This document shows positions 11,283-62,659 of a DNA stretch of 64,000 nt, in pieces. The stretch is from assembly GCF_001447785.1 (NCBI RefSeq), contig NW_015160909.1:90080-154079 (forward strand), in the 5' to 3' direction. Position 1 is the stretch's first letter, and each line of letters opens with the position of its first letter. Origin of the DNA: Gekko japonicus (taxonomy: Eukaryota). The position numbers and the translations under genes were made by a program. The notes beneath the pieces are model-generated. The model saw only the letters and a program-made list of their open reading frames with translations, made no database searches and had not been told where the DNA came from.

Positions 11283-11594
11283 TAGGGTTGCCAAATCCTG
11301 AAACCTTACCGGCAGGGGAGGCTCCGTCCCGGTCGGGAGCCGGCTGTGTGCGTGTGCGACGTCACCGGAAGTGACGTCAGACATTGCTGACGTTGGGGGC
11401 ATGGCCGAGCTCGTCGGGGGGGAAACATATGGTTCCCCCTCCCCGATGAGCTCAGCCATGCCCCAAACGTCAGCAACGGGGCTGCGTCACCTCTGGTTGC
11501 CCAGGGGGAACCCCGCCCCCCGATTCCGCCGGGGCGGAACTCGGGGCTCCAAAGCGGGGGATTCCCCGCCCCCCCGGGTCATTTGGCAACCCTA
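11283..11594. mobile_element. hAT (Blackjack-like TIR) MITE
   Basis: TIR tagggttgccaaat/atttggcaacccta, perfect 8-bp TSD atagaaac (11275-11282, 11595-11602), long internal palindrome, CpG-rich. Confidence 0.92.
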
Positions 11595-14851: not shown

Positions 14852-15526
14852 AATTCTTTTTTTTAAAGTACCCATAGGTACACTTTTATTAATTTTTTAT
14901 AATCTACAACAAACAAATCTACACACTACAAACAGACACTCTACTACACATAACGTATATACCAAGAGTACAGTTACATTATATGCTTATATGCAATGAC
15001 TTAATTAATAAAAACGCTATATCAAACACTTTCCATTCTTCTGTCTTCTGTGTTCTCAAGTCCATTGCGCTATCATTGCCAAATCTTCTATTACATTTGC
15101 ATTATACCAATCATAAAACTTTTTCCATGTTTTTTGAAATGCCCACTCTTTGCTTAATCTCATTTCTAAAGTCAGTTTGGCATTTTCTGCTGTTTCAAAA
15201 CGTTTATTCACAAACTCCTGTTTCGTTGGTATCACCATAGTTTTCCAATATTTGGCATATAAGATTCTTGCAGCTGTCGTCATATAAACAGTCAAATACC
15301 TATTCTCTTTTTCATAATCCTTTGGAAATATATTCAACAGCAAGACCTCTGGAGTAAATGGAATCTTTGCTCTTAGTATCTTCTCCATCAAACTATGGAC
15401 CCATTTCCAAAACTTTTTAGTAACATCGCATAGCCACCACATATGATAAAATGTGCCCCTTTTACTCTTACATTTCCAGCATTTATCAGAACAGTTAATA
15501 TTTTGCTTAGCCAGTCTATCAGGGGT
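14852..15526 (-). mobile_element. L1-clade LINE 3' fragment
   Basis: ORF 15056-15532 with the ORF2 C-terminal CCHC motif CWKC...HMWWLC; A-rich tail; 12-bp TSD gaacactgcatt at 14840-14851 and 15527-15538. Confidence 0.88.
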
Positions 15527-15871
15527 GAACACTGCATTGACTCTTCATGAAGCAAAGGACGAGGAAGATGATGAAATCCTGGGACCATGAGGCATACAAG
15601 ATGTCTCCATTTGATGTCCAAGATAAGTCCCAAGAGAGTGATGAACTCTCTTACCCTGGGATACAGCCCTACCTTCCTGCTCGAGTATTGTACCCTCCAC
15701 TTCATAGCTCATTTCAGTTTGTAGTGTAGTGTAGTATAGTGTAGTGGTTAAGAGCGATGGACTCTAATCTGGAGAACTGAGTTTGATTCCCCACTCCTCC
15801 ACATGAAACCAGCTGGGTGACCTTGGCTCAGACACAGTTCTCTCAGAACTGTTCTCTCAAGAGCAGTTCTC

Positions 15872-16481
15872 TAGGGTTGCCAGGTCTTTGGCTAGGGTTG
15901 GCAAGTTGATCTTCGCCGGGAGCGGGTGGCTCCCGGCTGGCGTTTGGTGCGTGCACGCTGCACGCATGTCACCCAGAAGTGATGGGAGGACGCCAGGCAT
16001 GCTGGGGGCAGGGGCACAGCCATACAGGGGAAAACCATAGAGTTTTCCCTTGGATGGCCATGGCCCCGCCCCCAGCGTGCCCAGCATGGTCACGTCACTT
16101 CTGGGTGACGCGCATGTCGGGGTGGAGTTTCCCCCGGGGCCCGATCCGGCAGCGCCGGGGGGACTTGGGATCCCTATCTTTGGCTCTCACCAGTGGGGGT
16201 GGGAGGGAGCTTTCTGGGAGCGAGGGAGTGGGGCAAGGTCACTGTGCATGATGTCCCCAGAGTGATGACATCACACGGAAGTGACATCATCATGCCGAGG
16301 ACATTGTGTGGCTACAATAGAACTTTGCCCAAAATACCAGAGCATTGCCGTGTAACGTCCCCAGCATGATGATGTCACTTCTGCGTGATTGGGGACATTT
16401 GTGTCAGAGCCTGGCTAGCAGCAGGCAGGAACCTGCAAAAACAGGGGATCCCCTGCTCCTACCTGGGGGCTGGCAACCCTA
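15872..16481. mobile_element. hAT MITE (outer)
   Basis: TIR tagggttgcca/tggcaacccta; perfect TSD cagttctc at 15864-15871 and 16482-16489. Confidence 0.9.
15893..16176. mobile_element. hAT MITE (inner, nested)
   Basis: TIR tagggttggcaag/cttgggatcccta; perfect TSD tctttggc at 15885-15892 and 16177-16184; internal palindrome. Confidence 0.88.
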
Positions 16482-17379: not shown

Positions 17380-18030
17380 GTAAGATAAAAAGAAGCCTCT
17401 AAACCTGGAGTTTCCATTTGGCTATTGTAGATAATAGCTGTTGGTATCCACCATGAAATTGTTTAATTCCCTTTTAAATCCATGTAAGACAGTGTCCTCA
17501 TATTTACATTATGCAATATGTGGACAAGTATTTTCTTTTGTGTATCCTGAATGTACTGCCAGTCTCCCTCCTTTTAGTTATTTCCCCCCCCCCAAGTTAA
17601 AAACCCCCAAAATAATTTAGCCTTTCCTCAGAGGGAAGCAGATCCAACCACTTGAACTTTTTTTGTTCTGCAGTTTGTTTGGTTTTTCCCCTGCAATATT
17701 CATTTTCAATTAAATTTCCACAAGTTATTTCAAATGCAGCCACACCATAAGACGCTGTTTGTTTTCACTCCTCTTTCTAACAGACTAGTATGGAATTAGC
17801 CCTTTTCATCACCATTGCATACTGTTTTACTGAGCTATGACCCCAACATCTCTTTCCAGATTAGTCTGAAAGATCAGACATCATCAGTCTGTGATTGGAT
17901 TTCTTTTGTTCCAGTATGTATCACTTTACACTTATTTACATTAAGCCCCATTTGCTATTGAACTAGTTTAGAAAGGTTCTTTGGCGCTCTCTGTAGTCTG
18001 TTGAGATTTATCATCCACAATAATTTGGTG
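17380..18030 (-). mobile_element. old CR1 LINE fragment (continues briefly after 19641)
   Basis: Colinear degenerate similarity to the CR1 at 23571-24900; ...taatttggtg|tcatc... is restored when the hAT insertion is removed. Confidence 0.6.
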
Positions 18031-19641
18031 CAGGGGTCATTTCCTAGAAAAAGAGCTAGGGGGACTCATTAGCATAACTCATTAGCATATGCCACACCCC
18101 CTGACATCACCGGAGGTGTGTCATAAGGCCACACCCCCTGACATCACTGGAAGTGTTTGACTTCACAACAACCTTGAAAGGGAGGACAGCATGCCACTGT
18201 GAAATCTTATGCTCCCCAAAATGGATTCTAGAATCCTGTCTGTATTAAGAGCCCCAAATGGCACCCCTTACATTCATTTTTGTCAATATTTTATCCTAAC
18301 AAGGATTTCCACTAGAACATTTTCAAAAGTGGAATCCTAGAGAGAATTACCTTCGAGAGATATCCCAGAACTGTTTGCAAAAGGCACACTGTTGGCAGAT
18401 ATTGGAACAGAACATCCTACCCAGAACTATCAAAACAGAGATTCATCACTTCCCCTCTATGAAACCTTTAAAAAAAGATGCCATACTCCACATGTATCTG
18501 GGAGACTGACAATGCAGAGGCGAGGGGGTACCAAAATGGCGCCCCACCTGAGCACACGTGCCTTCGTCGTACGGCAAGGCAACGCCGGGTCAGCCCGTGC
18601 CATCTGGTGGGGAGCTTCTCCCTCCACCTCGGCTTTGCTCAAGGGCTCCGCCACTCAATGTCAAGCCAAAGGGAAGTGGGCCAGGCGCACGGGGCCAGGT
18701 GCAGCTCGGGCTTGCCACCGGCAGAAGTCGCTCGCTCGCTCGTGCACATCAGTGAAGGGTGCCTGCCGCCTCTTCTCATCTCTACCCCTCGCTCCCCGAG
18801 AGCCGATGCAGCAGAGGGGCTGAGGAGGAGCTGCTGATGGGCGGGAAGGCGCGAGCGAGCACGACGGAGCCAGCTTGCCTGGCTGGCTGGCTGGCTGGCT
18901 CGCCCGCCTGCCTTTCTTTGCCTCTGGCCAGGCAGGCTGGAGCGCTCGCCTCCTCTCAGGCAGCAGCATGGAGGGGAGCAAGCCCAGCTCCTCGCCCAGC
19001 AGCCGGGACGAGGCCAGCCCCAGCACCAACGCCTGCTTCCAGGCGAAACTGGCCGACAAGGCGCTGAGCAGCCCCGGTGGCAACGGCAGCCTCAAGGAGC
19101 TCCGGCTGCCACTGTGACGCGGCCAGTCCAGACTCAAAGCAACACCCCAAACAAGAACTTCCACCCCCCCACTGCACAGCCATCGCCCAACAACACCCCA
19201 GGCTGCCCTGCAAAGCCCCCTCCCTCCCTCCGGTGGCTCTCTGCAAAGCCCCGCAGGCGGGCTCCCCCACAGATCCCCGGCCAGGCGATGCACCCCGAGG
19301 CGCGCCCGGAGACCCCCCGGCTCCGAAGCGAGGCCCAAGTGCCTTGTCGCCGCAGCCCGACTCCAGCCTGACGGCCCCACCACAAGCCTGGCAGCTGCCA
19401 AGGGGCGGAGGGGGGAGGAGGAGGAGCCATGGAGAGGCCATCTTGGCACGGGGCACCAGCCTCCACGCTTGTGGACCAAAAAGTGAGGAGCGGCCGAGGG
19501 GCCACCATCTCGGTGATGGTGCTTTCGGGCAAGGGGAAGCGAGGCGGCCGGAAGCAGGGGGCGGGGCTTCGTCGTGTGCCCCGCCCCCCGCACCTCACCC
19601 GGGGGATGGTGTCCCCTCGCGTCCCCCCCAAATGACCCCTG
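18031..19641 (+). mobile_element. non-autonomous hAT element with ~1.35 kb of heterologous, largely GC-rich cargo (Pack-type)
   Basis: TIR caggggtcattt/aaatgacccctg; perfect 8-bp TSD atttggtg (18023-18030, 19642-19649); ends shared with 62218-62637. Confidence 0.92.
18968..19117 (+). pseudogene. probable captured first coding exon fragment of an unidentified host gene (MEGSKPSSSP...KELRLPL)
   Basis: Kozak-like gcagcATGG; 46 of 49 codons end in G/C; preceded by GC-rich UTR-like sequence; lies inside the hAT. Confidence 0.6.
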
Positions 19642-19847
19642 ATTTGGTGTCATCCACAATGTTGCTACCTCACTGTGACTTTGAGTCATTTCTAGATGTT
19701 AGATTACATGAATATGGGAGATCTACTTTCCTCCATTTAGACAACTGTATTAGAGGGGTAGGCAATCACGTAGGGGCCAAAAACCCAACATTGTTTACCT
19801 GTGAAGAAACCGGTACACTGAAACATAATGGAGAGGGTAGAGAGATG

Positions 19848-20324
19848 TGTTAGTTAGCCAAACATACTGGGAGCAAGCTGAGGCCCTCTGGCACTGCTAG
19901 GGCCTCAGGAGCTAGAACCAGTCCCTTAAGAGGAGAACTGAACCCTGTGTGAAGAGCAAATTGGTCTTGCATGCCACTTTCAATGCTGGAGGTTGTCTAT
20001 GCCTGGATGTAGAGAGAACATTACTAGATATGTATGAAAAGAGGAGGAGGACTCAATAGAATGATAAAATGTGTGAGATCCAAGCTGTTTCTAGACCCTA
20101 TTATAATGAGTACGATATGAATTATTCTCATTGTATTCCCCCACTCCCTGTTAAGTGCAATATTATGGATTGTAATGGGTCCCCCCCTATTCTTTGTGTT
20201 GACTGGTGTGAGAGTCCCTCCAGTCTCTCCAGCATGGCTCTGGCACCTAATGTACAAGACTGTTTGACCATTGAATGTTTTTGATGATTCCTAATAAAGC
20301 TGTACATCTTCTTCTTCAATAACA
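19848..20324 (+). mobile_element. possible solo LTR
   Basis: tgtta...taaca termini, TATA-like tataat, AATAAA ~30 nt before the end; degenerate TSD. Confidence 0.4.
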
Positions 20325-20702: not shown

Positions 20703-21879
20703 CAGGGGTGTCAAACTCATTTGTTACGAGGGCTGGATCTGACATAAATGGGACTTTGTCGGGCAGGGCCATGTGCGTCATAACATGTAATGACAGAGCT
20801 GTTAACTTTATGAAGGACACAAACTGAATTAAAGGTATTATTTTTTAAAAAAATTAAAATACAAATATTTTATTTAACAGTTTTTGATAACTGACACCTC
20901 CCACACCTTCCCCCCCACCCTTAAAAGATGCCTGCCTAAAAATGAAAGGTGGTGGAATAGTGAGATTTGGCAGTGCAATATTTAAAATAAAACTTGAAGA
21001 TAAAAACTAAAACTATAAAATGCTCTGAGCCTAGGAAAAAATGAAATGGCTGGGCATTGCAAGCTTCTCCCTCCCCCCAGGTCTACTCAGAGTGTCAGTA
21101 GCTCTCCAGTGTAATGTTTCCCTTTGGCTGTTGGTTCCCAGGTTAGAGTACTTAGGCGCCTGTTCTCAGGTCCATTCCGCAAAGCTGGCTCAAAACATCA
21201 GCCCTTTATTTGCAAGGAGACAACTCTAACACCAACAACTTCAGCTACCATACAAAAACTGGAAACCGAAACTGCAGTTCCACTCCATTGAAATATATTG
21301 CAGCACACACAAAAAAAGTTGCAAAGAAAATGCAGAATAATTTTTCCATTAAGGTCTCTGGGGCCAGATTGATTACTCTGGGACTGGAATGATAGACTCC
21401 AGAGTAGAATGACAGTCCCTGGGAGTAGCAGAAGGGTTCTGGGAATGGAATGAGGGCCCATAGAGTGGAATTCCATTCTCAGAGTGGAATTCCATTCCCA
21501 AAACACGGCTGCTACTCCCAAGGACCCTCATTCCACTCTGTGCCCTGTCATTCCAGTCCCAGAACACAGATTCTATTACGAGGGACCGTTATTCCACTTT
21601 GGGGGCTATCATTCCAGTCCCAGAGTAGTCTGGGCTCAGAGACCTTAATGGAAAATTCATTTCAAATTTTCTTTGCAACTTTTTGTTGTGCCACAGCCCA
21701 GAGGAGTTTCCTGATGGAGGAGAAACAGGTGATGGAGGAGAAACAGGTGAAGTTAGCTGGGAAGTTTGGCAGCCCTGACCTCCCTCGGGGAGGGAGCAGG
21801 GGGAGAAGGGAGCTGTGGGCTGGATTAAAGCCCTGGATGGGGTGCTTCTGGGCTGCGGGTTGTGGGTTTAACACTCCTG
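20703..21879. mobile_element. hAT-Charlie-like non-autonomous element with an internal long palindrome
   Basis: caggggtgtcaaactc.../...gtttaacactcctg; same left end as 42848; TSD not preserved. Confidence 0.7.
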
Positions 21880-22418: not shown

Positions 22419-23570
22419 GTCTTCCGGAGTTGCGACAAGGGCAGCTCCATGTAGAGAGTATTGCAGTAGTCTAGTCTCGAGGTGACCATAGTGTGGATCA
22501 CTGTTGCCAGGTCATTGCATTCGAGGAAGGGAACCAACTGCCTGACTCAGCCAAAGATGGTAAAACGCTGCCTTGGCAGCAGCTGCTACCTGGGCCTTCA
22601 TTGTTAAGGTGGCATCCAGGAGCACTCCCAAGCTCCTGACTGTCAGTGCTGGCACGAGCTGCGCCCCGTCGAAGACTGGTAGTGGGATCCCTACCCCTGA
22701 TCCACTCCGACTCAGGCACAGCACCTCCGTCTTCATCAGATTAAATTTCAGTCCGCTCAGTCTAAGTCAACCAGCTACATCCTGAAGCGTGTGGTCCAGA
22801 TCTTCTGGGGTAGAGTTGGATTGAGCACCCAACAACAGATATAGCTGGGTGTCATCTGCACTGGTGACACCCTAGCCCATGCCTCTGGGCAATCTGGGCA
22901 AGGGGGTGCATATAGATGTTAAATACCATCGGGAACAGCACTGCCCCTTGGGGGACCCCACAGATCAGTGTGTGACTCCGGGATATCTGACCCCCAAGAG
23001 CCACCCTTAGTCCCTGACCTTGGAGAAAGGAGACAAGCCATTGCAAGGCAAGCCCCTGAATCCCAGTGTTGGCATGGCGGTGGATCAGTAGCTGGTGGTT
23101 GACCATGTTGAACGCTGTTGACAGGTCCAACAATAACAGCACTGCTGTTCCGTCCCAATCCAGATGCCTCTGGAGGTCATCTGTGAGGACAACCAGTGCC
23201 ATCTCCGTCCCATGGCCTGGGTGGAAGCCAGACTGGAAGGGGTCTATCATGGAAGTGTCATCCATAAAGCTCTGCAACTGTATCGCCACCACTCTCTCAA
23301 TTAATTTGCCCCAATAAAGCAAATTGGAAACTGGCCAGTAATTTGCCAATTCGGCTGGATCCAGAGATGGTTTTTTAAAGAGAGGGTGGACCGTCGCTTC
23401 CATGAGTGCCCCCGGGAACAGCCCCTCAGTGAGGGACTTGTTGATAAAATCCATGAGATACAGATCAAGGCTGCACGTGGTTGGGCATACTGTCGAAAGT
23501 AATCTGTCGACTTCCTCTAGGCTAAGTGGACTGAAATAATCGAAAATTGGACTAGAAGACATGCATGGAG
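22419..23570 (-). mobile_element. L2 LINE RT region (3' part; interrupted by CR1)
   Basis: YWPVSNL, QSGFHPGHGTE, LLLLDLSTAF, GVPQGAVL, ADD, VTSRLDYCN motifs. Confidence 0.92.
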
Positions 23571-24900
23571 AACATAAGAAAATAAGAGATGTTGGATCAG
23601 GCCAATGTTGGATCAGGCCAAAGGCCCATCCAGTCCAACACTCTGTATCACACAGTGGCCAGAAATACCAGTGCCACCAGGAGGTCCACCAATGGGGCCA
23701 GGACATTAGAAGCCCTCCCACTGTTGACCCCCCAAGCACCAAGAAGACAGAGCATCACTTGCCCCAGAGCCCCTATCTATACCTTGTGACTAATAGCCAC
23801 TGATGGACCTCTGCTCCATATGCTTATCTAATTCGCTTTTGAAGCCATCCATACTTGTAGCCGCCACCACTTCCTGTGGCAGTGAATTCCATGTATTAAT
23901 CACTCTTTGGGTGAAGAAGTACTTCCTTTTATCCATTCTAACCCGACCGCTCAGCAATTTCATGGAGTGCCCATGAGTTCTTGTATTGTGAGAAAGGGAG
24001 AAAAGTACCTCTTTCTCTACCTGCTCTATCCCATGCATAATCATATAAACCTCAATCATGTCTCCCCTCAGTCGTCGTTTCTCCAAGCTAAAGAGCCCTA
24101 AGCACTTTAACCTTTCCTCATAGGGAAAATGTTCCATCCCTTTTATCATTCAAGTTGCCCTTTTCTGAACTTTTTCCAAAGCTATAATATTATTTTTAAG
24201 GTGTGGTGACCAGAACTGCACACAGTATTCCAAATGAGGTCACACCATTGATTTATATAGGGGCATTATGATATTGGCTGATCTGTTTTCAATACCCTTC
24301 CTAATAATCCCCAGCATAGCATTGGCCTTTTTTATTGCAGTCACACACTGTCTCGACATTTTCAGTGAGTTATCTACTACAATTCCAAGATCTCTCTCTT
24401 GATCAGTCTCTGCCAGTTCAGACCCCATCAATGTGTATTTATATTTAGGATTTTTGGCTCCAATGTGCATCACCTTGCACTTGGCCCCATTGAACCCCAT
24501 TTGCCATGTTGACACCCACTTGCCCATCCTTGACAGATCCCTTTGGAGTGCCTCACAATCCTCACTGGTTTACACCACCCTGAACAACTTTGTATCATCT
24601 GCAAATTTAGCCACTTCTCTGCTTACTCCCAACTCCAAATCATTAATGAATAAGTTAAAAAGCATTGGGCCAAGTACTGATCCCTGCGGTACCCCACTGC
24701 TTACGTCCCTCCACTGAGAGAACTGCCCATTTATACTCACTCTCTGTTTTCTATTAATTAGCCAGTTTTTGATCCATGATTTTTGAGCTTACTTAGGAGC
24801 CTTTATCAAAAGCTTTCTGGAAGTCAAGGTAAACAATATCTATTGGATCTATTGGATCCCCCTTGTCCACATGTTTGTTCACCCCCTCAAAGAACACTAA
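23571..24900 (-). mobile_element. CR1 LINE 3' 1.3 kb inserted into L2
   Basis: [48 protein letters not shown]; CR1 3' UTR ending ttcttatgtt. Confidence 0.93.
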
Positions 24901-29338: not shown

Positions 29339-29403
29339 GGATTCTTAAATAGCAACCAGGATTCTTATATCGCAACCAGAACAATGTTGTTAATGGTGGA
29401 ACA

Positions 29404-30504
29404 TCTCTCTCCTATATAATAAAGCTGTTTTGGTGTGACTCCTGGACTCGCTCCCACAGCCTTTGGCCCGCTTGGCTGCCACTCTCACAGTCTCCCAATC
29501 CCCTGGCAGTATTGCTTTGCTGCGTTGGCTCGGCCGCGCCCATGGCGCCAGCGGCCAGCATTTTGCTATCACTCTCCAGGGAGCCACTGAAGGGAATGGA
29601 GTCTTGGCTTCAGTGTGCTGCGAGCCAAGTGACGAGATGAGCATTCCGGTGGGTGGGTGGTGAAGAGGGCAACTGCGACACAATGGGGGAACAGGGCGAG
29701 ATGGCGGAGAACTAGGAAGGACACCAGTCAACGTGGCTTGCCATTTGTGGGGCTGGGCAAAGATGAAAAGCTGGCTGGGTGCTCGTGGGGGTGGGCCTGG
29801 CCACTGGCAAGAAAGCCACAACCTCCCTCTCATCCCAGGCCCACTGGCGGGGACGTGCTGCGCTCAGTGAAGGGGAGTTTGGGAAGGAGCGGGCCGGCCA
29901 CTCTGGACCACTTGAATGCCACATGACAAAGGGGGGGAGTGCTGCACGTGTCAGCAGTGAGGGGTTCTTCAGGGGGGCTGCCAGGCCACTGCACGGGCTT
30001 CCATGTCTGCTCCCGCCCACCTCCTATCTCTACAGCTGGGGCAGGCCGTGGCTGAGGATGATGCTTGCCCACAGCATTGGGCCGGGGGTCGGCCCACCTT
30101 GCTGTGGCCTGCCATGGCTCCTCTGTTTGCCCCCAGGCACCTTCTTTCGGTATGGCAGGGGCAGCCCACGAGATGCTCCAAGATCACGTCTGGTGGCCTG
30201 GACGGCTGAGAAGAGGGAGCCTTATGGATCGCCTGCCTGTCCTTGGTGTGCACAGCCCCCTCCTTCATCTTCTCCCAGCAGGTGAGCGGAGAGCTGAGGA
30301 AAAGCAGGCTGCTACCAGGCTCCCTTCCCTCCCAACCGAAGGAGCTCTGGGGATAAGGAGGATGGCGAGGGAGGAGGCCTGCATGAAGACAACACTCCAG
30401 CTGGCCCCACTTTTGTTCCCAGCAAGAGCTGCGGTGCGGGGAGGATTGCTATCATGCTCTTCTAGCGCTCATTGTCTTGCTTCTACAACAGGCTTTGTGC
30501 CTAG
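29404..30504 (+). mobile_element. non-autonomous Helitron with GC-rich interior
   Basis: A|TC...tatataataaa 5' end; subterminal hairpin gctcattgt (30467-30475)/acaacaggc (30485-30493); CTAG|T 3' end; no TSD. Confidence 0.85.
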
Positions 30505-38887: not shown

Positions 38888-41800
38888 ATTTACTTCAACT
38901 TCTATCCCACCCTCCCCCACAAGCAAGCTCAGGGTGGGTCTCAACATTCTTAAAACCATACAGAATTATTTCAAACAGAATATGATAACTAAAACAGTTA
39001 TAAAAAGTTTGTACACATAAAAGCCTTAGAAGGCACCAGTTAAACAATTTACTGAACAGGATGAGGTTCCAGTTTAAACAGTTAAGGAGAAGCGGGTGGG
39101 TGAATAAGCAGCTAAGATGGACTATAATGCTGCTTGGCATAGCTAAACTAAGCAGAGAAGTGCAGGGCAGGGGAGAGCACTGTGGTTGAGCTGTCACCAC
39201 TTCAACCATAGGCCTGGTGGAACACCTCCGTTTTAAAGCCCCTGCGAAACTCAATACATCCCATAAGGCCCAGATCTCACTAGGGAGGGTGTTCCACCAG
39301 GCTGGCACCAGAGCTGAAAAGGCTCTGGCTCTTGTCAAGGCTAGGCAGACATCTTTGGGGCCAGTGACAACCAGTAGATGTGGAGTGGAAAAGCACAGGG
39401 CCCTTTGGGGCTGTATATATAGAGAGACAGTCCTGCAGTCCATATAGGGCTTTAAATGTAATAATCAAGACCTTGAACTTGACATGGAATTCAACTAGGA
39501 GCAATGCAGCTGGTGAAGCACCGGATGTGTGTGTGCTCTTAGGGGTGTCCCTGTAAGAACACATGCTGCTGCTTTTTGGGCCAGCTGCAGTTTTGGGCAA
39601 CTTTGTAGAGCAAATTACAGTAATCCAGCCTGGAGGTGACTGCTGCATGGAAAGGTAGGGGACCAGTTGCTTGACCTGCCACAGATGGAAAAAGGGAGAT
39701 CTCACAACTGCTGTGACCTGGGACTCCAGGAAATGTGAGGAATCCAGGACCACACCCAAACTCTTTATCACTGGCACAGGTATTAGCTGCACCCTGTCCA
39801 GTGTTGGGAGCTGGATCCCTGCCCCAGTCACTCCACAACCCAGGTACAGGATTTCCACCTTCATTTGGCTCTTCTTAAGCCATGCAGCCATGGCATTCAA
39901 ACCCTCAGTCAGAATGTCTAGGGTGGTATCTGGATGGCCATCCATCATCAGATACAGCTCAGTGTCATCAGCTTACTGATGACAACCCATCCCAAACTTT
40001 CAGACTATCTGGGCAAGGGGGCACATATAGATATAAAATAACATAGGGGAGAGGATCACCCCCTGGGAGATGCTGCATATACCAAAGGGTAATGTGGTGA
40101 TGTTCTCTCCCCAAGTGCTACCCTTTGTCCCTGACTGTGGAGAAATGAGACCAGCTACTGCAAAACTTTCCCACATATCCCTGGGTCAGTGAGGCAGTGG
40201 GTCAGGAGGTCATAATTGACCATGTCAAATGCTGTCGTTAGGTCTAATAACAACAACAGTACCAACCCATGCAGATGATACCAAAGATTGTCGGTGATGG
40301 TGACCAGTGCCATCTCCATCCCGTAAACAGGACAAAAGCTGGCCTGGAATAGGTCCAGGATAGAGGAATCTTCTAGGAAACCCTGGAGCTGTTTGGCTAC
40401 CGCTCTCTCAACTACATTACTCAGAAATGGAAAGTTTGAGATTGGGCGGTAGTTGGCTGGATCTAAAGGGTCCAGGGATGGTTGATGGTTGTCATGGGTC
40501 TGTTGTCTGTTGAGGCTGACTACTCCTCAGATGAGGAAGAGGCATGGAGCAACCCAGCCTCCTCTGGAGTCAGCCCAGAAGAGGAACCCTTAACAGCACC
40601 TGAGGGAGAAGAAGCCCCAGCAGCTGCACAGGAGGTGCAGCCAGAGGGAGAGACTGATCCAGAGCCTGGCCCAGCACCCCCAGGCGGAGACACCCCGAGG
40701 CCAGAATCCCCACCTAGTTCTCCTGAGTGCCCCAGACGCAGGGCATGCCAGCAGCTGAATGTGCAAGAGTGAAGGAAGAGTGCCAGACTGCAGCTCTTGC
40801 AAAGACAATGTGAGGGGCTGTGAGTCTTGGCAGATTGACTCCCAGGGAAGGGAGGACCTGGTCATAAACACCCCCATGTACCTGCCTCAGCACGGAAGCA
40901 ACTGTGCATGCTTCCACCTGATCCTGGCTGTCAGCCTCTGCTCCTTGCTCATAGCTCCTGCAACCTTTGACTGATTTTATGGCTTTCTGACCTTCGGCTC
41001 TGTTGCTTGACTTTCGGACTGCGTATCCATTTTCCAGTGCATGGTATCCATGAAGAACGGCTGACCCAGCACAATGATATTCACTGGGGGGGGGGCATAT
41101 TCCATCATTGCCAGCTTTCACTAGCCATTATAGACATGGGCCCAAGAGGCAAGTGGTGGGCTTCACAACATGCAGTATCCTGTCAACCTCCCTGGGAGAG
41201 CTGGCTGAAGCGGTCCAGTCTTGAACACAGCCAAGGGGCCTCTAGTTTTTGTACTGTATCAATAGTGGCTGGCAGGTTGTGGCAGAGTGACACGATTTCA
41301 TCTGCAAAATAGCTTCCAGAAAGCCTCACAGCTTATTAGCCAATTTAGTATCTTTCTGGGGTCCCTCTGAGAGGGATGTAAGTGACTGAATTACTTTAAA
41401 CAATTGAGCCAGGTGAGAACTTGCAGATGCAACAGAAGCTGCATAGAATTCCTTCTTTGTGGCTTTCACTGCCACCTCATAGACTTTCATAAATTTCCAA
41501 TAAGATGCTCTTGCAGCTCCAACAAGAGTCCGCTGCCACACTCGCTCCAGCCATCTCAGCTCCCATTTCATCTTTTGAAGCTCCTCAGTATACCAGGGAA
41601 CTAGTCTGGCATGGGGACTGAGAGGGCAACAGGGAGCAATCTTGTCAATGGCTTCAGAGAGACGATCATGCCAGTCCTCTACCAGCACATCTAAAGAGTC
41701 ACCATGAGGCACTGGATCCTGCAAAGCATCCTGGAATCCAGTGGGATCCATCAGTCCCACGGGTGAGCATAAATTAGCTCACCACCTAAACAAGGAGGCA
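38888..41800 (-). mobile_element. L2 LINE (3' UTR, RT and linker), interrupted by the solo LTR at 40490-41073
   Basis: TSRLDYCNLL, KFKVLIITFKAL, ADDTEL, RAFSALVPAWWNTLP, PWYTEEL motifs. Confidence 0.88.
40490..41073 (+). mobile_element. Gypsy-type solo LTR (584 bp)
   Basis: tgtcatgggtc...gacccagcaca; TSD atggt/atgat; TATA-like cataaa at ~40863; splits an L2. Confidence 0.8.
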
Positions 41801-42847: not shown

Positions 42848-42941
42848 CAGGGGTATTGAACTCATTTGTTATGACGGCCAGGTCTGACATAAACGAGACC
42901 TTGTTGGGCTGGGCCATGTGTGTCATAAAATGTAATGCCAG
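42848..42941 (+). mobile_element. hAT-Charlie-like element left end, running into the gap
   Basis: Similar to 20703-20790 (caggggt..aactcatttgtta..tctgacataaa). Confidence 0.75.
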
Positions 42942-43621
42942 NNNNNNNNNNNNNNNNNNNNNNNNNNNNNNNNNNNNNNNNNNNNNNNNNNNNNNNNNNN
43001 NNNNNNNNNNNNNNNNNNNNNNNNNNNNNNNNNNNNNNNNNNNNNNNNNNNNNNNNNNNNNNNNNNNNNNNNNNNNNNNNNNNNNNNNNNNNNNNNNNNN
43101 NNNNNNNNNNNNNNNNNNNNNNNNNNNNNNNNNNNNNNNNNNNNNNNNNNNNNNNNNNNNNNNNNNNNNNNNNNNNNNNNNNNNNNNNNNNNNNNNNNNN
43201 NNNNNNNNNNNNNNNNNNNNNNNNNNNNNNNNNNNNNNNNNNNNNNNNNNNNNNNNNNNNNNNNNNNNNNNNNNNNNNNNNNNNNNNNNNNNNNNNNNNN
43301 NNNNNNNNNNNNNNNNNNNNNNNNNNNNNNNNNNNNNNNNNNNNNNNNNNNNNNNNNNNNNNNNNNNNNNNNNNNNNNNNNNNNNNNNNNNNNNNNNNNN
43401 NNNNNNNNNNNNNNNNNNNNNNNNNNNNNNNNNNNNNNNNNNNNNNNNNNNNNNNNNNNNNNNNNNNNNNNNNNNNNNNNNNNNNNNNNNNNNNNNNNNN
43501 NNNNNNNNNNNNNNNNNNNNNNNNNNNNNNNNNNNNNNNNNNNNNNNNNNNNNNNNNNNNNNNNNNNNNNNNNNNNNNNNNNNNNNNNNNNNNNNNNNNN
43601 NNNNNNNNNNNNNNNNNNNNN
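42942..43621. other. assembly gap (680 N)
   Basis: Run of N. Confidence 1.
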
Positions 43622-45340: not shown

Positions 45341-47475
45341 TTTCATGGAGAGCAAAGACTGAAAGTACTGTGTCATACTTTGTGTGTTTCTTTTTTTCGG
45401 ATAACTGCTGCATTCCTGATGACTCGCCTGTCATGACTTTATAACTCCTTTGGCCAAAATGTTGTTAGCTTTGGTTTCAGTAATAATATAGCTTACAATT
45501 GAAGAATTTTGTCACAAGGCTTTTTTCTTGCTCACCAGCTGTATACAACGAAAAATGCCAAGATTTGTCCAAACCCATATGTTATCTTTGCGGTTTTATC
45601 ATTAAAACTTCTAGGAAATGATAAAATGCGAAGGAAAAAAGTTATCTACAAAGGTATCACCTTTTGCAGCACTCATGGAAGATCAAATGGATCTGTGGAT
45701 GTAACAGAAAGTAAATGGTGTGTGGAGGAGACAATTAAAAAGCAGACTAGAAAATAAAATAGGAACTGTACAAAGGGATGTGGAAAAGGTAATATTAGAT
45801 GTGAGAGGATTTTTAAAAGAGCTTTCACAAACTGGGTGTAAAATGTGCTAGTCGTTTTGAAAAATGAATCTTCCTCACTTCAAATGAAAGAAACAGCAAT
45901 GCTTCCTATGCTTGTTGCTGCTGAAAAATGGCATTCAAATATAACCAGCATGATCTTTGAGTCTGGACAGAAAATAAGAGAAGCCAATGTTGGATCAGGC
46001 CAATGGCCTATCCAGTCCAACACTCTGTCACACAGTAGCCAAAAATACCAGGTGTCACCGGGAAGTCCAGCAGTGGGGCCAGGACATTAGAAGCCCTCCC
46101 ACTATTAACCCCCCAAGCACCAAGAATACAGAGCATCACTTGCCCCAGAGTCTCTATCTATACCTTGTGGCTAATAGCCACCGATGGACCTCTGCTCCAT
46201 ATGCTTATCTAATTCCCTCTTGAAGCCGTCCATGTTTGTAGCTGCCACCACTTCCTGTGGCAGTGAATTCCATGTGTTAATCACTCTTTGGGTAAAGAAG
46301 TACTTCCTTTTATTTGTTCTAACCCGACCACTCAGCAATTTCATGGAGTGCCCAAGAGTTCTTGTATTGTGAGAAAGGGAGAAAAGTTCTCTACCTGCTC
46401 TTTCCCATGCATAATCTTATAAACCTCGATCATGTCACCCCTCAGCCCTCGTTTCTCCAAGCTAAGTTGAATCAACAGCCCTCGGCCTTTGCGGCCATTG
46501 GGCTGGATAAACAAATTTGCCACCCAGATGAGAGAGGCAGGCAGTCAGTTTGGGCACCAACAGGCCCATACGGGTATCTGGGGAGGAGGAGCCATAGGAT
46601 TTATAAGTCCGGCCCCTCCCCTGCTCAGGCAGCAGTTGTGCCAAGTCGTCGACCAGGGAGGAGCTCTGTCGAGTGGTGCGGTCATTGGCCTACCAGCGGG
46701 GGCTGTGCAGCTTGGGAGCTTCTCGTCTGGCCGGCGCTCGGTCGGGAGGCTTCGAGGGACGGAGTGTCCCTGCGGCCGGGAGCAGCAGTGCGTGTCACGG
46801 GAGCGGCTGACTGGTCGTCATCATCGGCGTGCCTAGCAGCTGCAGCAGCACAACGGCGGGATGGTGATTGCGGCAGCCACGGCGGACGAGGACACAGAGG
46901 GAGCGCATCGGGATGGCGAGGCATCTGGAGTCGACGATGTGGGCCAGTCAGGGCCTTTTGGCTGTTTGGGCAGAGCGGCGGCGGGCCCGCCTGTACAGGC
47001 GTCCTGCCTTCTGCGGGGCCTAGTTCGGTGGCACAGAGGGGGAAGGCCCTAAGGGGTAGAGGTCTGAGGATGGTGGTAGCAGCTCTGTGGGGGTTAGGCC
47101 GCTAGCTGGGTCTACCACCATCTTGGCTTGCTTGGCAGGGTCAGGCCACTGCCCTTTTCTGGGTCTGGGGCGACTGGGGGCTCCCTGCTGTGGGGAAATT
47201 TTTTCCTTGCCTCTGCAGCCTTTCCCACCCCCCATCCATCCCATCCTCCTTGCGGAGAAGTTGCTCTGGGTTGTCCGTGGGGGTTAGTGGGACTTGGGGA
47301 GCCTCTAATAGCCGGCAGGCCAAGCCTGTAGACGTTACGTATTAGTCACCGAGTGGCAGCCATCTTGGGTGTGGTTTGGCGGCCATTTTGTGTTTCCCCA
47401 GGGCAGTGGCCATTTTGTCTTCAGGGGCTTGGTGGCCATTTTGTCACACCTCAGTAATTAGTTTCACTTTTAGTT

Positions 47476-48834
47476 ATGGCTCCTAAGAAGGGTTCTGGTC
47501 ATTCAAAAGGCAAACAGCCGGCTCCTAAGCCAGCACCTAAGCGACTTGCTCCGGCGTTGTCTTCATCTGATGACGAGGATGATGGTGTACAGCGGGCCAT
47601 TTTGGACCACTTGTTGACTGTGGAGTCGGCTACTGGAGTCTCCACTCCTCCTGTGCGGCCGCCTGGAGGGGCCCGGGGAAGGAAAGAAACTCAGGCAGCT
47701 GCCAACAAGCGATTTCAGGCTGAAGTGCAAACACATTTATCTATTATAGAGGGGCGTACTGCCACACCAGTGGTTGATATGGAAAAAGCCGTTGGAAGCC
47801 AGGATGGTGTGCCTTCAGCAGCTAAGCCTTCAGGGCAGCAGAGCCCAGCACAGCCTGTGGCTGACTCTTCTTAGGCAGATGGTAAGTGTTGCACACACCA
47901 CACTGGGTGCGCCTGGCCTTGGGGCCACCCTGAATCTGAGGGGTTGGCTCCTTCCACTCCCAGCACTCCAGTGTGCAGCCCTGGGTGTGGGCAGGCCGGC
48001 CGCAACATTCCTCGTAAGTTGTCATCATCGGCACAGTGCTGCGCTGTTAATACACCATGGTGGGGTGGCCCCTCGCCATGTGGCGTGTCTTATGCAGGGG
48101 CTCCTGCCGCTGCCCTCCCTTTTGGGGACCTGGCACTGCCTTTGGGCGATCACCTGCTTTTGGCTACCAGGGATAAGATTTGTAGGGGTGAGTTTGTAGA
48201 TGTCTTTCCTCTACTGTACCGTGAATTGGACAAGAAGGAGAAGGAGGAGTTGGAGGAACCGGATAAGGAAAAGTATAGGGGAATGAGGGTGGATAAGACT
48301 TGGGCCAATTGGGTTGCTGGCTTTTTGATATATGTGGGCGTACTTTCTAAAGCGCAGCCCTATAGGGCAGCCGCGTTTTTCCGATACTTTGATATCCTTC
48401 ATAAGGGTTATACTGGCTTTACCGGCCCCGCTTGGCTTCAGTATGATGAGGAGTATAGGATGCGGGCAGCCATGAACCCTTCTTTGCGTTGGGACCAGAT
48501 CCACCCTCATCTATGCTTACAGGTGATGACCTCTTCTAGGCCAAATACTGGTGATGGTTCTCATAGCGGCCATTTAGTAGAACATGCGTTCACGCCTCTC
48601 GGTCCCTGCCAAGCGGTTCAACCCTGCCAGATTTGTTGGGAATTTGGGGCACAGGGAGTGTGCAACCATAAGGCATGCCAATATCGGCATGAGTGTCCTT
48701 TGTGCACAGACCCCCATCCCTTCTCCGCATGTTTCCGTGGAAAGCCTCAGCGAGGTCATAGGCGGCCAGAGGCAGGAGGTCCCGGGCAGGGGCATGGAAA
48801 GGGGGCCAACACCCAAAAGGTTGAAAGTGCTTAG
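47476..48834 (+). pseudogene. Ngaro-type gag-like ORF1 (disrupted)
   Basis: MAPKK start; WLQYDEEYRMRAAMNPSLRWD; C-terminal zinc finger CWEF...C...C.YRHEC..C...H. Confidence 0.85.
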
Positions 48835-49153
48835 GAAGTGGTTGCGCAGTTACCCTTGCCATAAGGGCAGTTTGTATTTGTTGGAATGTTTTTCTCAAGG
48901 TTTTCGCATTCCCTTTCAAGGTGTGAGGGGCCCTTTCATGGCATGCAACCTCCAGTCCTTAAAGGGTATGGAAAGCGTCGTTAGGGGCAAGATTGTGAAG
49001 GAGTTGAACGAAGGAAGGGTCCTGGGTCCTTTCCCTTCCCCTCCTGTTCCTAACCTCCGCGTTTCCCCTTTGGGCATTGTGCCCAAAAAAGCACCCAGGC
49101 AGTTTAGGTTGATTCACCACTTGTTCTATCCGAAGGGTGGCTCTGTTAATGAT
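48800..49153 (+). pseudogene. reverse transcriptase N-terminus, truncated
   Basis: GFRIPF...KELNEGRVLGPF...VSPLGIVPKK...FRLIHHL.YPKGGSVND; overlaps the gag end, as is typical of YR elements. Confidence 0.88.
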
Positions 49154-49478
49154 AGTAACAATTGATTGGCACAGTAATAAGTTAATACGGAGAACAAGAA
49201 AAACTGTGAAAAAGTGACGCTTAATATATGTCTTTAAAGAATCATAGAAAAGTGAACAAAAATATTATACATAATCATAGAAAAATATAGAAAAATATAT
49301 TGATGGTGATCTCCAGAATGTCTTGCCGTTTCGAAGGAAGATCTTCTTCTGAACAAAGATGTAGGACCTTATAAATACAACAATATACATCTTTGAAAGT
49401 CTGGAGATTATATAACTTGTTATAATATAATTAATAAAAAGAGTGGACCCTTACAAACAATGTCTCTCAGTAATTCAT

Positions 49479-50029
49479 ATCTGTGGGCACAGTTTTGTTT
49501 TTTGGGCGGCACACCATGCCAGACAAACAGCGATTTTGTCTCGGCCAGTGGGCTACGGTTGAGTGGTGGGGCCGTATGGGCTTACAGTGGTCTGGCCTGC
49601 TACACTTGTTATTTCAGGAAATGGTCGGCCCTCCACCACAGATTCTTGTTCTACATCTGGGTGGAAACAATTTGGGCTTAGTGAAAAGCCTTAATAATCC
49701 AAGCGCGGGATGATTTCCAAGCGATCCGCAGGCAGTGGCTGGAGACACTCTTAATTTGGTCAGCCATCGTACCTCGTAGAGTTTGGCGGGGAGCGATGAG
49801 TCCTTTGGCTATTGACAAGGCTCGCAGGAAGGCAAACCGAGAATTACAAAGAATCTTGGAGGGTGGCTTGGGCATGTTTCTGCCTCACCGAAATATTCAC
49901 CCGTGGTGGGCCGAGCTGTACCGGCAGGATGGGGTCCACCTGTCTGAACTGGGCATTGACATCTTTCTGGACAACCTACGGCAAGGGCTGTGGGTGGCCT
50001 TGGGCCTCCCGATGGGTGCGAAGGCCTAA
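49479..50029 (+). pseudogene. SGNH/GDSL hydrolase ORF (frameshifted)
   Basis: Block I ICGHSFVFWA, block III LHLGGNN, block V DGVHLS. Confidence 0.85.
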
Positions 50030-50847
50030 GCTGAGGCTTGGCCTTGGCGATGGCAGGGTTCTAGGCAGTATATAGGTTGCGGTACGGTGAGCACCAGCTG
50101 ACACCCATTTATTTGGGTTGAAGGGGTCTTGTGAGTACAGCCTTTTTGCCTGGCGGCACGGGGCAGAGAAAACAGACTGCCTATGGGAACACCCCATTGC
50201 GGTCCTCTCTTTGAACCTAGCGGCTTGGGGGTTGGACTATGGGGTTGTCCTGTAATGGCTAACCGGATGGGTGGGAGCCATCGCTGATGGCTCTGGCCTG
50301 GGGTTGGGTGGCTCGCCCTATGTTGAAGTTAAGGAAGGGGTCTTTGACCTTTGGCCTTGACCATACCGCTGAACAGTTTTGCCTTTGCCGTTGGTTACAG
50401 TTAAGGTTGTCAGTTAATAAAGTGGCCCAATATTTAAATCCAGCACTTGTGTCTGTCTCTTTATTTCATCTTGGGTGGCAAAGAGCTCCAAGCGCTTTAA
50501 CCTTTCTTAATACAGAAAGTGTTCCAACCCTTTTATCATTCGAGTTGCCCTTTTCTGCACTTTTTCCAAAGCTATAATATCCTTTTTAAGGTGTGGTGAC
50601 CAGAACTGCACACAGTATTCCAAATGAGGTCACAGCATTGATTTATATAGGGGCATTATGATATTGGCTGATCTGTTTTCAATACCCTTCCTAATAATCC
50701 CCTGCATAGCATTGGCCTTTTTTATTGCAGTCACACACTGTCAAGTTCTCACACTGACAAGTTCTCAGATACGCCTGATAACCACCTTAGCATTGGTCAG
50801 TCTGTGGTCTTTGGAATACTTTCTATTCGTGCTAGGAGAGAGGGAGT

Positions 50848-59529: not shown

Positions 59530-60012
59530 TATTTAAAGCTTGTAATGCCATTGGCACTGGTTTCTGCTGGGCATTCTGTACATTGTAACTGCAAGGATCC
59601 TCTGGTTTGACATTACTCCTCTTTTTGCTTGCATTGCAATGGTGGCACTGGGTTCTGCTGGGCACCAGTATAGCAGTGGATGTGGGGGTGATTTCCTCAT
59701 GGACTAAATAATCTGCTACTTGCATAGGTGATTTCTTCTGGAAACAGGAAGCAGTCACCCCTGGGCTCAGATCCGTTTGGCTCTTGTGTCTGTTTCCAAA
59801 GCAGATGGGCACTTGGAATGAATTCTTCACTGCTATACGGGCTCCTTTTGTGAGTGGGGAGCCCAGAATTATATTTAAAGCTTGTAATGCCATTGGCACT
59901 GGTTTCTGCTGGGCATTCTGTACATTGTAACTGCAAGGATCCTCTGGTTTGACATTACTCCTCTTTTTGCTTGCATTGCAATGGTGGCACTGGGTTCTGC
60001 TGGGCACCAGTA
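59530..60012. repeat. perfect 141-bp direct repeat flanking a 201-bp insert
   Basis: 59530-59670 is identical to 59872-60012. Confidence 0.93.
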
Positions 60013-62217: not shown

Positions 62218-62637
62218 CAGAGGTCATTTCGGGGGGGATTGCGGGGGAACACAGTTCCCCCGGGTGAGGTACGGGGGGTGGGGCACATGACGAAGCCCCA
62301 CCCCCTGCTTCCGGCCGCCCCGCTTCCGGCCCTCATTCAGCCAGGAGGAGGCAGGAGAAGAGTTGCTTCCTCCCTGCCTCTCCCCACCCCTGCCTGCCTG
62401 GGGCCAGGGAGGGCCTTCGCGGGGCTTCCTTGCACTCCCGCCGGCCTTGCAGGTCCACCGCCGGGCCCCTCATGGGGCTCGGCAGTGGAGCTGCAAGGCC
62501 GGCACCGGCAGCCGGGACCGTTGGGGGCGGGGTGTGTGGCCTTATGACACACTTCCGGTGATGTCAGGGGGTATGGCATATGCTAATGAGTTATGCTAAT
62601 GAGTTCCCCTAGCTCTTTTTCTACTAAATGACCCCTG
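62218..62637 (-). mobile_element. short copy (420 bp) of the same hAT family as 18031-19641
   Basis: TIR cagaggtcattt/aaatgacccctg; perfect TSD gaccaaac (62210-62217, 62638-62645). Confidence 0.92.
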
Positions 62638-62659
62638 GACCAAACTAAGGTGGAATCCT

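Follow-up and report, generated by a model that had tools for sequence, protein, structure and literature searches.

A Pack-type non-autonomous hAT element of Gekko japonicus with the start of HCN1 in its interior

Introduction

The window analyzed here, a 64-kb stretch of Gekko japonicus DNA, contains a 1,611-bp hAT-type element (18031–19641) whose interior holds a GC-rich open reading frame with a strong start codon. This raises the question of whether host DNA was captured between the transposon ends and, if so, from which gene and by what route. An earlier note made from the letters of the sequence had proposed a non-autonomous hAT element in whose interior the coding sequence of a host gene begins. 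That proposal is borne out, the captured start being codons 1–44 of HCN1, and the features of the locus are collected in Table 1.

Table 1. Features of the element, its flanks, and the second family member (positions within the window)
Feature	Position	Strand	Evidence or remark
Left TSD ATTTGGTG	18023–18030	+	One copy left at organism C empty site
Left TIR CAGGGGTCATTT, 12 bp	18031–18042	+	Sequence repeat comparison
Left family end	18031–18156	+	102/108 identical to copy at 62218–62637
Cargo S1, AT-rich	18154–18478	.	Organism B and same-species contigs
Cargo S2, decayed CpG-island DNA	18480–18778	+	Two contigs overlapping by about 30 bp
Probable HCN1 5′ UTR, (GGCT)n microsatellite	18779–18967	+	Suggested by place directly upstream of HCN1 ATG
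HCN1 codons 1–44	18968–19099	+	GC3 0.95; match to squamate HCN1 N-termini
Junction-made tail LRLPL-stop, not HCN1	19100–19117	+	15/15 aligned HCN1 N-termini continue HGNSVCFKVD
Cargo S4, GC-rich	19101–19347	.	Contig 19051–19231 spans HCN1 junction
Cargo S5, GC-rich, with GCCATCTTG at 19437–19445	19348–19525	.	Organism B contig
Right family end	19535–19641	+	96/110 identical to second copy
Right TIR, complement of CAGGGGTCATTT, 12/12	19630–19641		Within right end
Right TSD ATTTGGTG	19642–19649	+	Perfect 8-bp match to left TSD
Second family member, 420 bp	62218–62637	−	Same ends, own TSD GTTTGGTC

Results

Ends of the element and abundance of its family

The element is non-autonomous and was assigned to the hAT superfamily on structure alone. 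The 12-bp TIRs and perfect 8-bp TSD described previously were both recovered; given the composition of the flanks, any one 8-mer is expected with a probability of 2.6 × 10−5. The TIR begins CAGGG, which fits the YARNG rule (PMC3014272), and the left end carries a 13-bp tandem pair (18064–18089) followed by subterminal repeats with a 37-bp period (18091–18119 and 18128–18156). Between the ends lies an interior of about 1,370 bp, within the 100–5,000-bp range of Pack-TIRs (PMC8277862). Just outside the TSD pair, the 11-mer TCATCCACAAT occurs on both sides (18011–18021 and 19650–19660). No match to a transposase or to any Pfam family at E ≤ 0.001 was obtained with 21 reading frames scanned inside the element, in agreement with the earlier failure to recognize a transposase. 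Across 415 frames of the window, Pfam returned reverse transcriptase-related pieces and three weak unrelated matches, and Rfam gave 0 matches.

A second, 420-bp member of the family lies in the same window, and both members have perfect 8-bp TSDs. Its 200-bp interior is unrelated to that of 18031–19641, with nothing significant in common between the ends. The sequence beside its right end is the commonest loose end before 19535 (221 records), and the 420-bp copy is probably a common form of the family. The idea that this copy bears captured cargo of its own was dropped, since its interior near the right end matches that commonest form.

The short hAT-like family is very abundant. With 44,690 records aligned over 17700–20000, summed contig depth over the family ends came to 7 × 10^6 to 1.7 × 10^7 (about 10^7 at the left end) against 58–75 in the flanks, although such summed depths do not measure copy number. 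In organisms B and C, the right end is much less frequent, at about 19 and 2,700 times flank depth, respectively. A 27-nt left-end motif had 0 matches in each of the metagenome, viral, and prokaryote collections. The insertion sites at 18014–18030 and 62638–62654 are alike beyond the TSD, with a TTTGGT core, and in two runs the consensus of the reads ahead of the left TIR closes with TA-GTTATAAC, at an agreement of only 0.35–0.38; together, these sites and this low-agreement consensus suggest a palindromic target preference of the family.

An empty site in a related species

Four of 24 listed public runs were aligned to 17700–20000: same-species DNA (run X1), organisms B and C, and one RNA run. 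Same-species contigs span both outer junctions with 0 differences, at depths of 57.7 and 74.9, in the best same-species DNA run, which may be the assembly's own source. Organism C, a related species, has an empty site with one TSD copy: in a 1,933-bp contig, 18022 is joined to 19642, whereby the 1,619 bases skipped equal the element plus one TSD. In the right-flank contig of organism B, matching stops at 19642 with 38 further letters unaligned and no joint called, a break that fits an empty site. The whole 1,611 bp came to this site as a single unit or on a single pair of ends, and the insertion made the 8-bp TSD. Flank divergence of organism B is 4.5%, and the species split predating the insertion corresponds to 5.3–7.1%.

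The reading frame and its donor

The frame at 18968–19117 comprises 49 codons. Its ATG has A at −3 and G at +4, and 46 of its 49 third positions are G or C, against 28 first and 29 second positions; the Kozak-type start and the count of 46 codons, both claimed earlier, are confirmed. The best 49-codon window in 18520–19641 scored 47; none of 400 Markov shuffles attained this value, although their maxima lay at 45–46.

The 49-residue peptide (P0001) had a single match among 116 candidates, P0002 (E = 2.6 × 10−12), in a candidate search insensitive enough to miss a named gecko HCN1. P0002 is a protein of 137 residues that carries an Ion_trans_N domain. Against solved structures, it matched HCN1 (5 × 10−57) far better than HCN4 (8 × 10−27) or HCN3, and among its 54 longer relatives the best 10 all bear the name HCN1, Eublepharis first. 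A phmmer search of 1.84 billion proteins likewise gave one match, to residues 1–44 of an HCN1-type N-terminus. Over these 44 residues, the peptide is identical to P0002 at 37 and to six named squamates at 28–33 (the best two values being 37/44 and 33/44), to four turtles at 26–28, to two birds at 22–23, and to two mammals at 20–23. The alignment is gap-free only to P0002 and Eublepharis. By these protein comparisons, the first 44 codons of HCN1 are present in the interior, and the earlier suggestion to compare the peptide with host proteins has yielded its homologue, the HCN1 N-terminus.

All 15 aligned HCN1 sequences continue HGNSVCFKVD where the element reads LRLPL-stop, placing the breakpoint at 19099–19100. 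Because the HCN1 match ends there, at codon 44, the TGA lies in foreign DNA beyond the junction, and its earlier reading as a decayed CGA was wrong. The capture thus took 44 of at least 137 codons, part of exon 1 with no splice donor, the 137 residues of P0002 appearing to be exon-1-length. With full-length HCN1 as query, no other HCN1 exon was found in the 64-kb window, nor did an insensitive search with P0001 find a sister-copy frame among proteins of 26–86 residues.

Other segments of the interior

Upstream of the gene fragment, S1 has a GC content of 0.39 and a CpG o/e of 0.08. In organism B, a contig of 1,320 bp (depth 8.85, with flank at 11.7) aligns only over 18154–18478, with 30 differences and 32 gap letters, and a same-species contig with 0 differences covers 18315–18478 at depth 235.8. 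Divergence of S1 from the organism B homologue is 9%, twice the flank divergence of 4.5%, and for this reason the organism B contig may represent a paralogous copy of an old repeat and not a donor. As read from the alignment ends, S1 overlaps the left family end by 3 bp (TGT), a possible, if weak, microhomology.

For S2, a same-species 671-bp contig at single-copy depth (68) aligns only over 18480–18706, following 444 unrelated bases. It shows 24 differences, or 89.4% identity over 227 bp (10.6% diverged). A second contig, placed at about 18677–18778 by distances to its ends, extends a path that ends 190 bp before the ATG, and a single contig of depth 281.6 covers 18958. From its position, S2 is probably HCN1 upstream or 5′ UTR DNA. 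The 671-bp contig would be the parent of S2, since the differences are those expected between an unmethylated CpG island and a copy that had become methylated. Of the 24, 17 entered this comparison (from 40 of 182 rows): 12 have A/T here and G/C in the contig, 2 are the reverse, and 3 are G/C swaps (12 versus 2, p = 0.013). Eight of the listed differences lie at CpG, and 8 of 10 A/T-to-G/C transitions are at TpG/CpA (p = 0.024).

Downstream, a contig at 19051–19231 (depth 221.1, 4 differences) crosses the junction between HCN1 and S4. Summed depth reaches 3,633 at 19317–19393, and 19313–19347 may be family-internal. A 638-bp contig of organism B aligns only over 19348–19516, with 18 differences and 11 gap letters, and has neither S4 nor an element end beside this S5 homologue. 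Same-species variant contigs of S5 have depths of 75 and 99.1, and a contig at 19398–19570 (depth 176.1) joins S5 to the right family end. With a summed depth of about 8–10 times and several variants, S4 and S5 could instead come from inside other elements. A MASPWLLLL frame is found on the minus strand of S5.

Public contigs thus split the interior into at least three segments with separate homologues (18154–18478, 18480–18778, and 19348–19525), which suggests a mosaic of about three or more donors, HCN1 being the sole named one and the only one shown to be a gene. The homologues break at 18478/18480, 19099/19100, and 19348; at the first of these, two unrelated contigs end from opposite sides, at 18478 in organism B and at 18480 in the same species. 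The CpG-rich mosaic of the earlier note stands as to separate segments, but AT-rich, CpG-poor 18154–18478 also lies inside and had gone undescribed. Both YY1-type strings reported with it are in place, but the one at 18532 is absent from the parent-like contig, where C instead of A at 18536 abolishes the CAAAATGGCG motif. CpG richness was rejected as a sign of capture, plain hAT-like MITEs in the window being CpG-rich too. No codon signal was detected in S1, S2, S4, or S5, in which the best GC3 was 0.43, 0.69, 0.74, and 0.71–0.77, against segment GC of 0.39, 0.63, 0.69, and 0.68–0.72, respectively. The 11-mer TGCCACTGTGA occurs in S1 (18192–18202) and just past the HCN1 junction (19107–19117), which could be chance.

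Copy number and order of events

Relative to the mean of the two flank contigs (57.7 and 74.9), the interior contigs of depth 235.8, 221.1, and 176.1 stand at 3.6, 3.3, and 2.7 times, with 0/164, 4/181, and 3/173 differences, respectively. The second of these crosses the HCN1 junction and the third the junction of S5 with the right end. The contig just before the ATG stands at 4.3 times flank depth, as expected for parent plus copies. Since the flanks are at single depth, a local duplication is not the source of the raised interior depth. From contig depth we infer about 3–4 young, near-identical sister composites, although contig depth is not copy number and the contigs include no second insertion site or second TSD. 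Coverage of 18547–18623 comes from the diverged single-depth contig alone, this copy and any sister being absent (a filter may have removed them), and so the sisters may lack S2. One further, more diverged contig (19079–19247, 13/169 differences) also spans the HCN1 junction and speaks against this reading. Tentatively, capture (10.6% from the parent-like contig, a figure inflated by CpG decay) is older than insertion (which postdates a species split of 5–7%) and amplification (0–2%).

Decay and expression of the cargo

Six of the 44 residues differ from both closest HCN1 sequences, and 3 of the 6 fit CpG deamination; the CpG o/e of the cargo is still about 0.6. In one RNA run, of which about 3% was read, depth was at most 1.8 on 18932–19085 and 0 over 18393–18854, values that neither show nor exclude expression. 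The few reads could derive from HCN1 itself. The cargo appears to be methylated and decaying neutrally. Neutral decay is the likeliest state of the locus, and the single locus is probably inert.

Other features of the window

At 11283–11594 and 15872–16481 lie two hAT-like MITEs, both CpG-rich (GC 0.67 and 0.60, with 27 and 26 CpG, respectively), whose TIRs are TAGGGTTGCCA and whose 8-bp TSDs, ATAGAAAC and CAGTTCTC, are perfect; the second interrupts a SINE-like repeat. A 4-kb GC-rich insert (46465–50480) splits a repeat found intact at 23601–24352 and holds broken frames of 319 and 194 residues (47875–49165) with no significant Pfam match that nevertheless look DIRS/Ngaro-like. Decayed LINE reverse transcriptase fragments (RVT_1, zf-RVT) were found at 22855–23754, 24573–24788, 40158–40526, and 15059–15544. 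A long imperfect foldback with internal 61-bp repeats (21313–21684) is probably another MITE. An exact 141-bp direct repeat at 342-bp spacing (59530–60012) lies inside a 211-residue minus-strand frame, and a GC-rich 1.1-kb stretch (29400–30500) has several open frames with no Pfam match. An assembly gap of 680 N lies at about 42940–43620.

Discussion

The element is a real Pack-type hAT, and we consider it likely that its whole history is that of a non-autonomous element which acquired the HCN1 start in a serial, mosaic capture and was later re-mobilized. The normal interior would have been replaced during repair of a break inside the element, by template switching onto ectopic DNA, and several such replacements would have brought in S1, the HCN1 5′ region, S4, and S5. 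The finished composite would then have been moved in trans by a hAT transposase to about 3–4 sites, as contig depth suggests. Subsequent methylation would have left the cargo to neutral decay, with the 49-residue frame a junction accident without function.

An alternative that we regard as improbable is gap filling independent of transposition, in which a short element arrived first, its interior was filled later at this one copy, and the composite never moved. The short form is indeed extremely abundant and also present in the window, the organism C empty site dates only the insertion, after that split, and 98.6% of published animal Pack-TIRs are single-copy, so that this locus would belong to the majority class (PMC8277862). 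A composite that never moved is at odds with junction-crossing contigs at 2.7–3.3 times flank depth and about 2% different from this copy. The 680-bp gap aside, neither the 18 kb upstream nor the 44 kb downstream contains HCN1 exon 1, whereas the parent is no more than 15 kb away in 57% of published cases, and nearly the whole interior is replaced here against a median gap of 4.6% in that class (PMC8277862). The parent-like contig is, moreover, 10.6% diverged, more than the split predating the insertion (5.3–7.1%), a comparison that CpG decay inflates. Co-option of the HCN1 promoter piece to drive a transcript or the 49-residue peptide seems very improbable. About 30% of profiled Pack-TIRs are transcribed (PMC8277862), and the few RNA reads on 18932–19085 (depth up to 1.8) might be taken as a trace of this, but depth is 0 over 18393–18854 in the one run, of which about 3% was read, and those reads could be HCN1's. 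The start keeps its strong Kozak context, the frame is still open, and a CpG o/e of about 0.6 is retained; against this, 6 of the 44 residues are replaced and the loss of CpG is directional.

Retroposition truncates its copies the other way, at the 5′ side and not the 3′. Here, the HCN1 piece has kept its 5′ end and lost its 3′ end. Neither a poly(A) tail nor a polyadenylation signal follows the ATG within the element, and the 20 largest of 33 repeat families include no direct repeat flanking the piece. That the piece was retroposed or independently duplicated into the element, or was a pre-existing duplicon merely enclosed by TIRs, is accordingly less probable still, for all that the window is rich in LINE fragments and retrocopies inside TIR elements have been discussed (PMC8277862). 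The probability of an assembly chimera of GC-rich reads is close to negligible. GC-rich, repeat-bounded DNA in a gapped assembly invites such errors, and part of S2 is absent in this form from run X1; the outer junctions, however, are both crossed by short-read contigs with 0 differences, further contigs span the HCN1–S4 and S5–end junctions, the TSD is perfect, the empty site is an exact match, and the departures of the cargo from HCN1 are directional and of CpG type.

Capture by a Pack-type hAT, the reading preferred here, can be set beside published systems. Gene capture by animal TIR elements is already published, mostly for hAT (PMC8277862), and the novelty for vertebrates that the earlier note implied is therefore lower. 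Tan et al. (2021) listed 370 animal Pack-TIRs, 208 of them hAT, four multicopy, and one with a 5′ UTR, and considered nearly all Pack-TIRs to be accidents of repair, present in one copy and derived from one donor; their only lizard, anoCar2, had 0 cases and 0 annotated hATs (PMC8277862). Their pipeline required one parent to cover 80–120% of the interior, and a filter further demanded a unique parent with at least 90% DNA identity and no TE within 100 bp (PMC8277862). In the present element, homologues break at three junctions, so that no single parent has that coverage, and the parent-like contig is 89.4% identical over 227 bp. The element works like a Pack-TIR yet, on this analysis, would fall outside that catalogue. 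Among the catalogued cases, Pack-hAT-N8_XT with its CAPSL 5′ UTR likewise has non-autonomous hAT ends around host 5′ DNA, and its class is similarly far from the parent, with an empty orthologous site and probable re-transposition (PMC8277862). Animal Pack-TIRs differ in a median cargo of 224 bp against about 1,370 bp here, where there are apparently several donors, a start codon plus 44 codons, and a squamate host (PMC8277862).

Plant Pack-hAT, Pack-CACTA, and Pack-MULE elements share TIRs and an 8-bp TSD without transposase and carry genic DNA from several loci (bioRxiv 10.1101/2021.06.18.448592), and plant Pack-TYPE parents are likewise GC-rich and lowly methylated (PMC5861414); here, in contrast, the host is a vertebrate, one cargo segment is AT-rich, and the family-wide preference for GC-rich 5′ gene fragments that the earlier note proposed would rest on one named case. 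Anolis hobo_AC and non-autonomous hATs (Novick et al., 2011, PMC3014272) resemble the element in the 8-bp TSD, YARNG ends, and uptake of extraneous genomic DNA, but their captured DNA is described as old, TE-bearing filler, not a named gene start. Of these, hAT-N6_AC has an NTTRYAAN target and 12-bp TIRs, to be compared with the flank consensus GTTATAAC here (agreement 0.35–0.38), and the TIR sequence differs from all families in Table 1 of that paper (PMC3014272). Bat Helitrons (Thomas et al., 2014, PMC4224331) are also vertebrate DNA transposons that take up gene 5′ ends, including promoters and first exons, with sequential capture and amplification, but they are rolling-circle elements without TIRs or an 8-bp TSD and reach far higher copy numbers. 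No paper on gene capture by gecko hATs was found in a search that left most subscription papers outside and Repbase and Dfam uncompared, and the family of 18031–19641 may already be named. The element is probably both multi-donor and multicopy, a combination seldom recorded in animals.

In annotation, copies of this kind can be mistaken for CpG islands or genes, and they can attract reads from HCN1. Whether the family acts genome-wide like rice Pack-MULEs, many of its members being stepwise-captured, re-amplified mosaics of CpG-island gene starts from different loci, is a wider proposition that we hold to be doubtful, though worth keeping in view. If true, it would mean that promoters and first exons are shuffled in an amniote by a cut-and-paste system, so far overlooked because surveys required one parent per element and lacked annotated hATs from squamates. 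The locus is a lead in this respect: a family with very many ends makes plant-style serial 5′ capture cheap to test in an amniote.
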